A stretch of 64,000 nucleotides of DNA from assembly GCA_041609995.1 (NCBI GenBank), contig JBFIPU010000001.1:8305-72304 (forward strand), given 5' to 3'. Made by a program: the position numbers and the translations under genes. Origin of the DNA: Acidimicrobiia bacterium (GTDB lineage Bacteria > Actinomycetota > Acidimicrobiia > Spongiisociales > SHLN01). The notes beneath the pieces were generated by a model. That model saw nothing but the letters and a program-made list of their open reading frames with translations. It did not search any database and was not told where the DNA came from. This document shows, in pieces, positions 50,357 through 50,944 of this stretch (within the stretch, counting starts at the first letter, position 1; the number at the start of each line of letters is the position of its first letter).

Positions 50357-50944
50357 ATGCCTTACATCGAGGAAATCCACCCTGATGACGCGGTAGGAGC
50401 GACCAGGAAGGAATACGAACGGGCCATGCGGAGGGCGGGCCGGATCTGGAACATCGTGGCGATCATGAGCCCGAACGGAGAGGCCATGCGCGACTCGATG
50501 CGGTTCTATGGCACGTTGATGTTCGGCGAGTCGCCCCTGTCCCGTTCCCAGCGCGAGATGATCGCGGTGGTGACCTCCCAGGCCAACGAGTGCGACTACT
50601 GAATCCGGGCGCACTTACACGACCTCCGGTCGGAGGTCGCCGCCGACCTGGAGCTCCCGGATGAGGAAGCCCAGGCGCTGGTCGATCGGTTTGCCACCAA
50701 CTGGCGCACGGCCGGCCTGAATGCGGCCACCGGGGCCCTCCTGGCGCACACGGAGAAGCTGACCCTCGCGCCCGGCGAGTGCGACGAGCAGGACATCGAA
50801 CGGTTGCGAGCAGCCGGCTGGGATGACCGCGCCATCCACGACGCCACGCAGGTGTGTTCCTACTTCAACTACATCAACCGGGTCGCCGACTCGCTCGGCG
50901 TGGAACCAGAACCCTTCCTGGACGAACTCGGTTACGAGACCTAG
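50357..50944 (+). CDS. AhpD/carboxymuconolactone-decarboxylase family peroxidase-related selenoprotein (UGA=Sec, CxxU)
   Basis: LSRSQREMIAVVTSQANECDY-TGA(50600-50602)-IRAH... stays in frame with family-typical sequence (EKLTLAP...DIERLRAAGWDDRAIHDATQVCSYFNYINRVADSLGV) to TAG 50942-50944. SECIS-like hairpin follows the UGA; RBS GGAGG. Confidence 0.88.
50620..50639 (+). promoter_or_regulatory. putative bacterial SECIS element
   Basis: Perfect 8-bp stem CGACCTCC/GGAGGTCG with a GGTC loop, starting 17 nt after the UGA; G at the first loop positions. Confidence 0.8.

Follow-up and report, generated by a model that had tools for sequence, protein, structure and literature searches.

The DNA at positions 50357-50944 (+ strand) of the window, meaning the whole stretch of 64,000 nucleotides that was analysed, is read here as one gene encoding a 195-residue AhpD-like thiol/selenol oxidoreductase (TIGR01926) whose second redox residue is selenocysteine (Sec). 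We put the probability of this reading at roughly 93%. Judged from sequence, it is a genuine selenoprotein gene, and it belongs to a family which is already well documented.

The complete gene has 195 codons and a TAG stop codon, with Sec at codon 82. Its ATG start codon at 50357 (+) and a Shine-Dalgarno-like GGAGGG at 50346-50351 (+), separated by a 5-nt spacer, were read from the sequence. The open reading frame 50357-50602 has 81 codons and is closed by TGA in the context ...ANEC-D-Y-TGA-IRAH. This TGA (50600-50602, +) occupies the place of the second Cys in the motif E-x11-C-x-x-C-x3-H. Past the TGA, the same frame continues for 113 further sense codons up to the true stop codon, TAG at 50942-50944 (+), as read from the sequence and its translation. 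The first potential start codon (ATG, GTG or TTG) in frame past the TGA, a TTG, comes only after about 68 codons, and the list of open reading frames holds none of 50 amino acids or more on the + strand in the frame downstream of the TGA. An earlier reading, made from the sequence alone, had described an 81-residue frame closed by TGA at the second-Cys position, 113 more sense codons with no canonical start nearby, and a 195-residue read-through product. The coordinates and motif of that description match ours, and translation with TGA as Sec gives the 195 codons and a protein above the TIGR01926 cut-off. On the opposite strand, the divergent TerC-family frame (49270-50358, -) in its longest reading overlaps the ATG of the selenoprotein gene by two bases; the TerC domain begins only at residue 120, so the true start of that gene is probably further inside the frame.

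The read-through protein was compared with family profiles and known structures. It matches Pfam CMD (4.3e-12) and the NCBIfam model TIGR01926, "peroxidase-related enzyme", with 127.7 bits against a cut-off of 81.8, residues 7-186 lying on positions 6-177 of the 178-position profile. Its active-site motif is E67-x11-C79-x2-U82-x3-H86. The codons for Glu67 (50555-50557, +) and His86 (50612-50614, +) encode residues which are invariant in an alignment of 22 protein sequences, while Cys79 (50591-50593, +), the first position of the CxxU, aligns with the first Cys of the CxxC in PDB 6k40 and 2oyo. Full-length homologues align from residue 1, and the invariant columns span G14 to L180, on both sides of the TGA; those downstream of it are H86, T136, L150, G154, F170, N171, R175 and L180. 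The AF2 model (pLDDT 96.5) is all-helical, with nine helices, and Foldseek aligned it to 2pfx, 6k40, 3c1l, 2prr and 2oyo with TM scores of 0.82-0.85 (0.84-0.85 for 2pfx, 6k40 and 2oyo).

By sequence, the best solved relatives are 6k40, 2oyo and 2pfx, whose CxxC lines up with the CxxU. The first of these is DR1765, an AhpD-like protein of Deinococcus radiodurans, which has the same E...CxxC...H site at about 34% identity (E = 6.6e-26, TM 0.85). DR1765 and its structural-genomics relatives 2pfx, 2oyo, 3c1l and 2prr have Cys as the second redox residue, whereas the present gene has Sec. The models NF041238, NF041047 and NF053654 share the CMD fold and the CxxU, but scores are far below the cut-offs and the models were rejected as assignments: NF041238, the AhpD_rel_CFYUT (seleno)protein, reached 50.6 bits against 175 and matched with the C-terminal part of its profile only, and NF053654 reached 19.7 bits against 310.

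The genome bin was searched for the machinery that inserts Sec. The bin is a metagenome-assembled genome (MAG) of 2.92 Mb in 174 contigs, 83.8% complete with 0.34% contamination, in which the window is C1:8305-72304. A tRNA-Sec at C6:39639-39730 matches Rfam RF01852 with 70.8 bits and is called by ARAGORN as tRNA-SeC with anticodon tca. The selA gene scores 421.9 bits against a cut-off of 267.9, selB scores 302 bits with a further C-terminal match within the same 595-aa frame, and selD scores 379.6 bits and contains one in-frame TGA. With tRNA-Sec(UCA), selA, selB and selD all in the bin, the organism is predicted to decode Sec, as the sequence-only reading had supposed. The association of gene and machinery rests on binning, because the machinery lies on contigs C6, C7 and C19 of the MAG and the AhpD-like gene on C1. 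The selA and selB genes are adjacent on the minus strand at C19:660-3674 (loci L009, L011 and L017), about 27 nt apart, and probably form one operon. The bin also holds prfB, encoding release factor 2 (RF2; 466 bits against a cut-off of 370), and TGA is its commonest stop, closing 459 of 766 long coding-like frames. Together these argue that the code is not globally recoded.

Public protein sets show how this family has been annotated. Among the 120 database homologues listed, 75 fall below 150 aa and are mostly C-terminal pieces, and 68 of the 76 alignments to these short proteins begin past the Sec position. This bears out the earlier suggestion that standard annotation would split the gene. 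The motif could be read in 32 of the 45 longer listed homologues, with 15 having C at the Sec position, 13 W, 2 R and 2 S. The full-length homologues in which Trp is printed there are among P0002-P0012, P0014, P0018 and P0023. The W is most likely a systematic artefact of gene callers that applied a TGA=Trp table to metagenome contigs; we infer this rather than observe it, since no W protein is identical to any of the loci that were fetched.

The printed W, together with the fact that some callers read Trp, is what speaks for the alternative of a read-through at the UGA that needs no selenium, through near-cognate insertion of Trp or Cys or through a lineage-wide reassignment of TGA. A reassignment would sit badly with RF2 and with the use of TGA as the commonest stop, and the bin carries a dedicated tRNA-Sec along with selA, selB and selD. 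Moreover, a CxxC redox site with W as its catalytic residue would not function. We consider selenium-free read-through very unlikely.

True termination at the UGA would mean that the 81-aa product is itself functional and that the downstream part is either untranslated or made separately. A certain amount of truncated product is to be expected, since any Sec-UGA is also open to RF2. Nevertheless, separate production would have to start without an in-frame ATG, GTG or TTG for about 68 codons, the downstream part is the conserved rest of the AhpD-like fold, and the 81-aa product would lack both the His and the second redox residue. As an account of the gene, termination is extremely improbable.

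Relatives of the gene were examined for the codon at the Sec position. When the read-through protein was searched against 41 genomes from its own order, 35 gave a match, and 38 of the 59 listed matches contain exactly one in-frame TGA. Thirty of these same-order loci were fetched, and the codon at C-x-x-[ ]-x3-H was TGA in 21 and TGC or TGT in six; in the other three the motif was not found by pattern, one of them being cut by a contig end. A wider scan, over contigs from one genome per species, found at least 581 relatives. The best 80 were examined, and all 80 have TGA at the aligned position. By record title these 80 come from Acidimicrobiia (including Ca. Actinomarina), Chloroflexota, Acidobacteriota, Latescibacterota, Gemmatimonadota, Planctomycetota, Calditrichota (Calditrichaceae) and others, at least seven phyla. 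Two MAG records titled "uncultured Klebsiella sp." (L087 and L105) carry an orthologue nearest to Chloroflexota-type records, and that label is doubtful. Identity reaches 76% across residues 1-193 in a congener. Where the codon is not TGA, Cys is found opposite the UGA: seven of 21 aligned database homologues have Cys in the Sec column, as do the solved structures 6k40 and 2oyo.

Downstream of the UGA lies the predicted bacterial SECIS hairpin (50620-50639, +), a perfect 8-bp stem (50620-50627 with 50632-50639) closed by a GGTC loop (50628-50631; GGUC in the RNA). Distances from the UGA are 17 nt to the stem and 25 nt to the loop. The 8-bp stem 17 nt past the UGA, with G first in the loop, had been proposed from the sequence alone as fitting the geometry of bacterial SECIS elements, and it is exact at these positions. 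According to the Fig. 2 legend of PMC13188914, such elements (bSECIS) have a loop of 3-9 nt with G within its first two nucleotides, a stem of 4-16 bp, a distance of 16-37 nt between the UGA and the loop, and a minimum free energy of at most -7.5 kcal/mol. The hairpin lies within all of these published constraints, with a 4-nt loop starting GG, 8 bp, 25 nt and -14.0 kcal/mol.

Folding stability was evaluated separately. The 20-nt hairpin alone has a z-score of -3.5, with one of 200 shuffles as stable, and its 81-nt context has a z-score of -2.2, with six of 200 as stable. Stability alone is weak evidence here, because the genome has 65% G+C and the context is only modestly unusual. Folding energy was also tried as a discriminator between Sec and Cys forms and was rejected. 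The mean energy of the 45 nt past the codon is -13.0 (n=77) and -16.5 (n=14) for Sec forms and -16.8 (n=6) for Cys forms, and stability was dropped as evidence because this stretch folds about equally well in both.

The strong evidence for the hairpin is comparative. An ungapped alignment of the 48 nt from the TGA onward was made from 78 sequences, and its 74 distinct rows were counted. The seven core pairs of the stem (columns 21-27 with 34-40) are each present in 69-74 rows, the eighth pair is formed in only 9 distinct rows, and 86.7% of cells are paired overall. Three of the eight pairs show double-sided changes, C-G to U-A, in 11, 8 and 1 rows (20 cells). The covariation score of the stem is 0.179, compared with 0.131 +/- 0.008 after shuffling, and none of 500 shuffles reached 0.179; in a control where the pairing partners were slid along the alignment, the score was at most 0.115. 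The UGA and the hairpin are thus conserved together in relatives, in register and with compensatory changes. The hairpin also encodes D-L-R-x-E-V, a peptide also present in homologues whose residue in place of Sec is Cys, Arg or Ser, so the conservation of the hairpin may be partly a protein constraint. One of the covarying pairs couples base 3 of an Asp codon with base 1 of a Val/Ile/Thr codon, and all 8 rows that have A at the second of these sites have U at the first. Selection on the protein would not by itself impose this coupling. We know of no bacterial SECIS model in Rfam for the AhpD-like selenoprotein family, and an Rfam scan of 50300-51000 at E <= 10 gave no relevant match and two irrelevant weak ones.

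These comparisons bear on the idea that the gene is a decaying pseudogene, in which a Cys codon, TGC or TGT, has mutated to TGA. The mutation would take a single substitution, and ordinary ORF calling does yield an 81-aa fragment. A simple nonsense mutation would hardly be kept in every one of the 80 best related loci, which span several phyla, with 113 downstream codons open and conserved and with a hairpin that accompanies the TGA and covaries. The comparative data effectively refute the pseudogene reading already, and we give it a negligible chance.

A sequencing or assembly error at 50600-50602, for which the metagenomic source of the assembly and the occurrence of single-base errors could be cited, has next to no chance of being right, given that relatives have the same codon and that no deviating letter appears there in the contigs of four public runs, which come from four studies. 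One of these contigs, 936 nt long and from an independent study, bridges the site over 591 nt (50300-50890) with two differences, neither of them in the TGA; two runs cover the TGA codon with zero differences, yet with less than 31 nt on one side.

The Sec-containing AhpD-like reading therefore stands, and the family it belongs to has a published history. Zhang, Fomenko and Gladyshev (2005, PMC1088965) described the new family "AhpD-like protein", with a CxxU motif and COG2128, from the Sargasso Sea, giving 27 sequences and drawing the SECIS. Zhang and Gladyshev (2008, PMC2398784) reported "AhpD-like 1" from the GOS data with 299 Sec sequences and 902 Cys homologues. A table in a 2026 review (PMC13188914) lists "AhpD-like protein, TIGR01926, CxxU", and a 2026 database paper (PMC13326102) uses the AhpD-like family as a browsing example. 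The sequence-only reading had called the selenoprotein hidden, a label which does not survive these reports. The present gene belongs to the same HMM family (COG2128/TIGR01926), has Sec second in the CxxU and G in a small apical SECIS loop, and comes, like most known members, from an environmental genome. It shows no difference in kind; what sets this copy apart is its source, a MAG of a non-Actinomarina member of Acidimicrobiia. Our searches found no discussion of the family for Acidimicrobiia; the supplementary tables of the selenoproteome papers and of a 2026 preprint on Actinomarina may list it genome by genome. Since the selenoprotein family has been published since 2005, our result is a correction to annotation and not a discovery.

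The distribution of selA was used to ask how common Sec is in this lineage. Among sampled genomes, it scores above its curated cut-off in 142 of 201 from the class (110 of 161 in the high-quality subset) and in 260 of 401 from the phylum, the latter tally including 12 unpublished genomes. The trait had been described as sporadic in Actinomycetota; on these counts Sec use in the lineage is the rule, not sporadic. A 2026 preprint (10.64898/2026.04.03.716425) reports selC, selA, selB and selD in Actinomarina, which is in the same class as the window organism, with about five selenoproteins per genome including a Sec-containing SelD. AhpD is not mentioned in that preprint.

The neighbourhood of the gene was compared across 81 loci, and no neighbour is common to all of them. 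In the window, the flanks hold the divergent TerC-family gene, a GNAT acetyltransferase, a membrane protein and a PEP-utilising (PtsI-like) gene. Two larger neighbour clusters were rejected as off-frame ORFs overlapping the AhpD-like gene itself. The largest real cluster is a gene for a 2-oxoacid dehydrogenase E2 component, with lipoyl, E3-binding and catalytic domains, which in 13 of the 81 loci, all of one clade, lies upstream on the same strand and ends 3-7 nt ahead of the start of the orthologue (L119:140-1498 and the corresponding genes of L064, L065, L076, L088-L091, L099, L100, L104, L107 and L109). A serine carboxypeptidase-like gene is found downstream in the E2-linked loci. The 64-kb window itself has no E2 gene beside the selenoprotein gene. 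Because the 13 loci are kin, the linkage hints at a lipoyl-dependent reductant but does not demonstrate one.

By using these observations together, a broader reading can be proposed. The orthologues may form a clade of AhpD-like proteins in which Sec is essentially obligatory and which is spread over at least seven phyla by record title, with a SECIS stem whose nucleotides are nearly frozen because it also encodes the conserved D-L-R-x-E-V helix segment, and the placement in E2 operons may point to a selenium-dependent, lipoamide-fed relay for peroxide reduction. We hold this proposal tentatively and think it rather unlikely as a whole. If it is true, the E2-operon placement, in at least one Acidimicrobiia-like clade, would indicate a relay resembling the mycobacterial AhpD system.

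In M. tuberculosis AhpD the second Cys is the nucleophile. AhpD of M. tuberculosis (1knc), which works in the AhpC-AhpD-lipoyl protein-Lpd relay, belongs to the same superfamily and has the same kind of CxxC site, but it is a distant structural match only (Foldseek E = 2.3e-2, TMq 0.52, 12% identity). According to the review PMC8945050, AhpD in mycobacteria returns AhpC to its reduced state and receives its own electrons from a lipoamide protein (citing Bryk 2002), and a DR1765 mutant is sensitive to H2O2, with the CxxC cysteines mattering.

A mechanism can be sketched for the present protein. During translation the hairpin at 50620-50639 would recruit SelB-GTP-Sec-tRNA(Sec), and the UGA at 50600-50602 would be decoded as Sec while RF2 competes for it. 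Together with the conserved E67 and H86, the C79-x-x-U82 pair may then reduce peroxides directly or re-reduce a peroxiredoxin-type partner. From what PMC8945050 says of DR1765 and mycobacterial AhpD, we propose that Sec82 would be the attacking residue, with a selenenylsulfide to Cys79 as the intermediate; a lipoyl protein is one lead for the reductant. The peroxidase or reductase role is suggested by homology with relatives about 34% identical.

The same bin contains further selenoprotein candidates. The selD gene (C7:39762-40673, L019) is itself one, because its in-frame TGA falls within ...S-H-G-A-G-U-A-C-K.... A second AhpD/CMD paralogue at C38:14004-14576 (L130) has its TGA at C-H-Y-U. 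The paralogue group of the same order that includes this copy has an unrelated stem sequence, yet a GGUCU loop at a similar distance, and compensatory changes are seen in the hairpin of two members. Paralogues of the C38 type with a TGA occur in many genomes of the order.

A genome-wide scan based on frame composition and hairpins was very noisy: it gave 18 and 231 candidates and missed selD, and ten candidates were picked by eye. Four further candidate genes, identified by Pfam only, each have a TGA at a redox Cys position and a downstream hairpin: C2:2137-2886 (L131), C14:22135-22677 (L132), C51:4240-4644 (L133) and C26:13848-14390 (L136). Among these four, two are TlpA/AhpC-TSA-like thioredoxin-fold proteins (U-x-x-C), one is of the ArsC family (U-x-x-S) and one is AhpC-TSA_2 (U-x-x-C). 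Another five (L134, L135, L137, L138 and L139), none with a Pfam family, were discarded as off-frame ORFs. The candidate selenoproteome of this 84%-complete bin comprises at least seven genes: the AhpD-like gene, the Sec-containing SelD and five further candidates.

The gene opens no new mechanism, and its main value is for annotation, where standard callers cut the AhpD-like family at the UGA. Read correctly, it would add an antioxidant selenoenzyme to an Acidimicrobiia genome. The candidate selenoproteome fits what the 2026 preprint reports for Actinomarina, and it would modestly extend the use of Sec in Acidimicrobiia beyond that genus.
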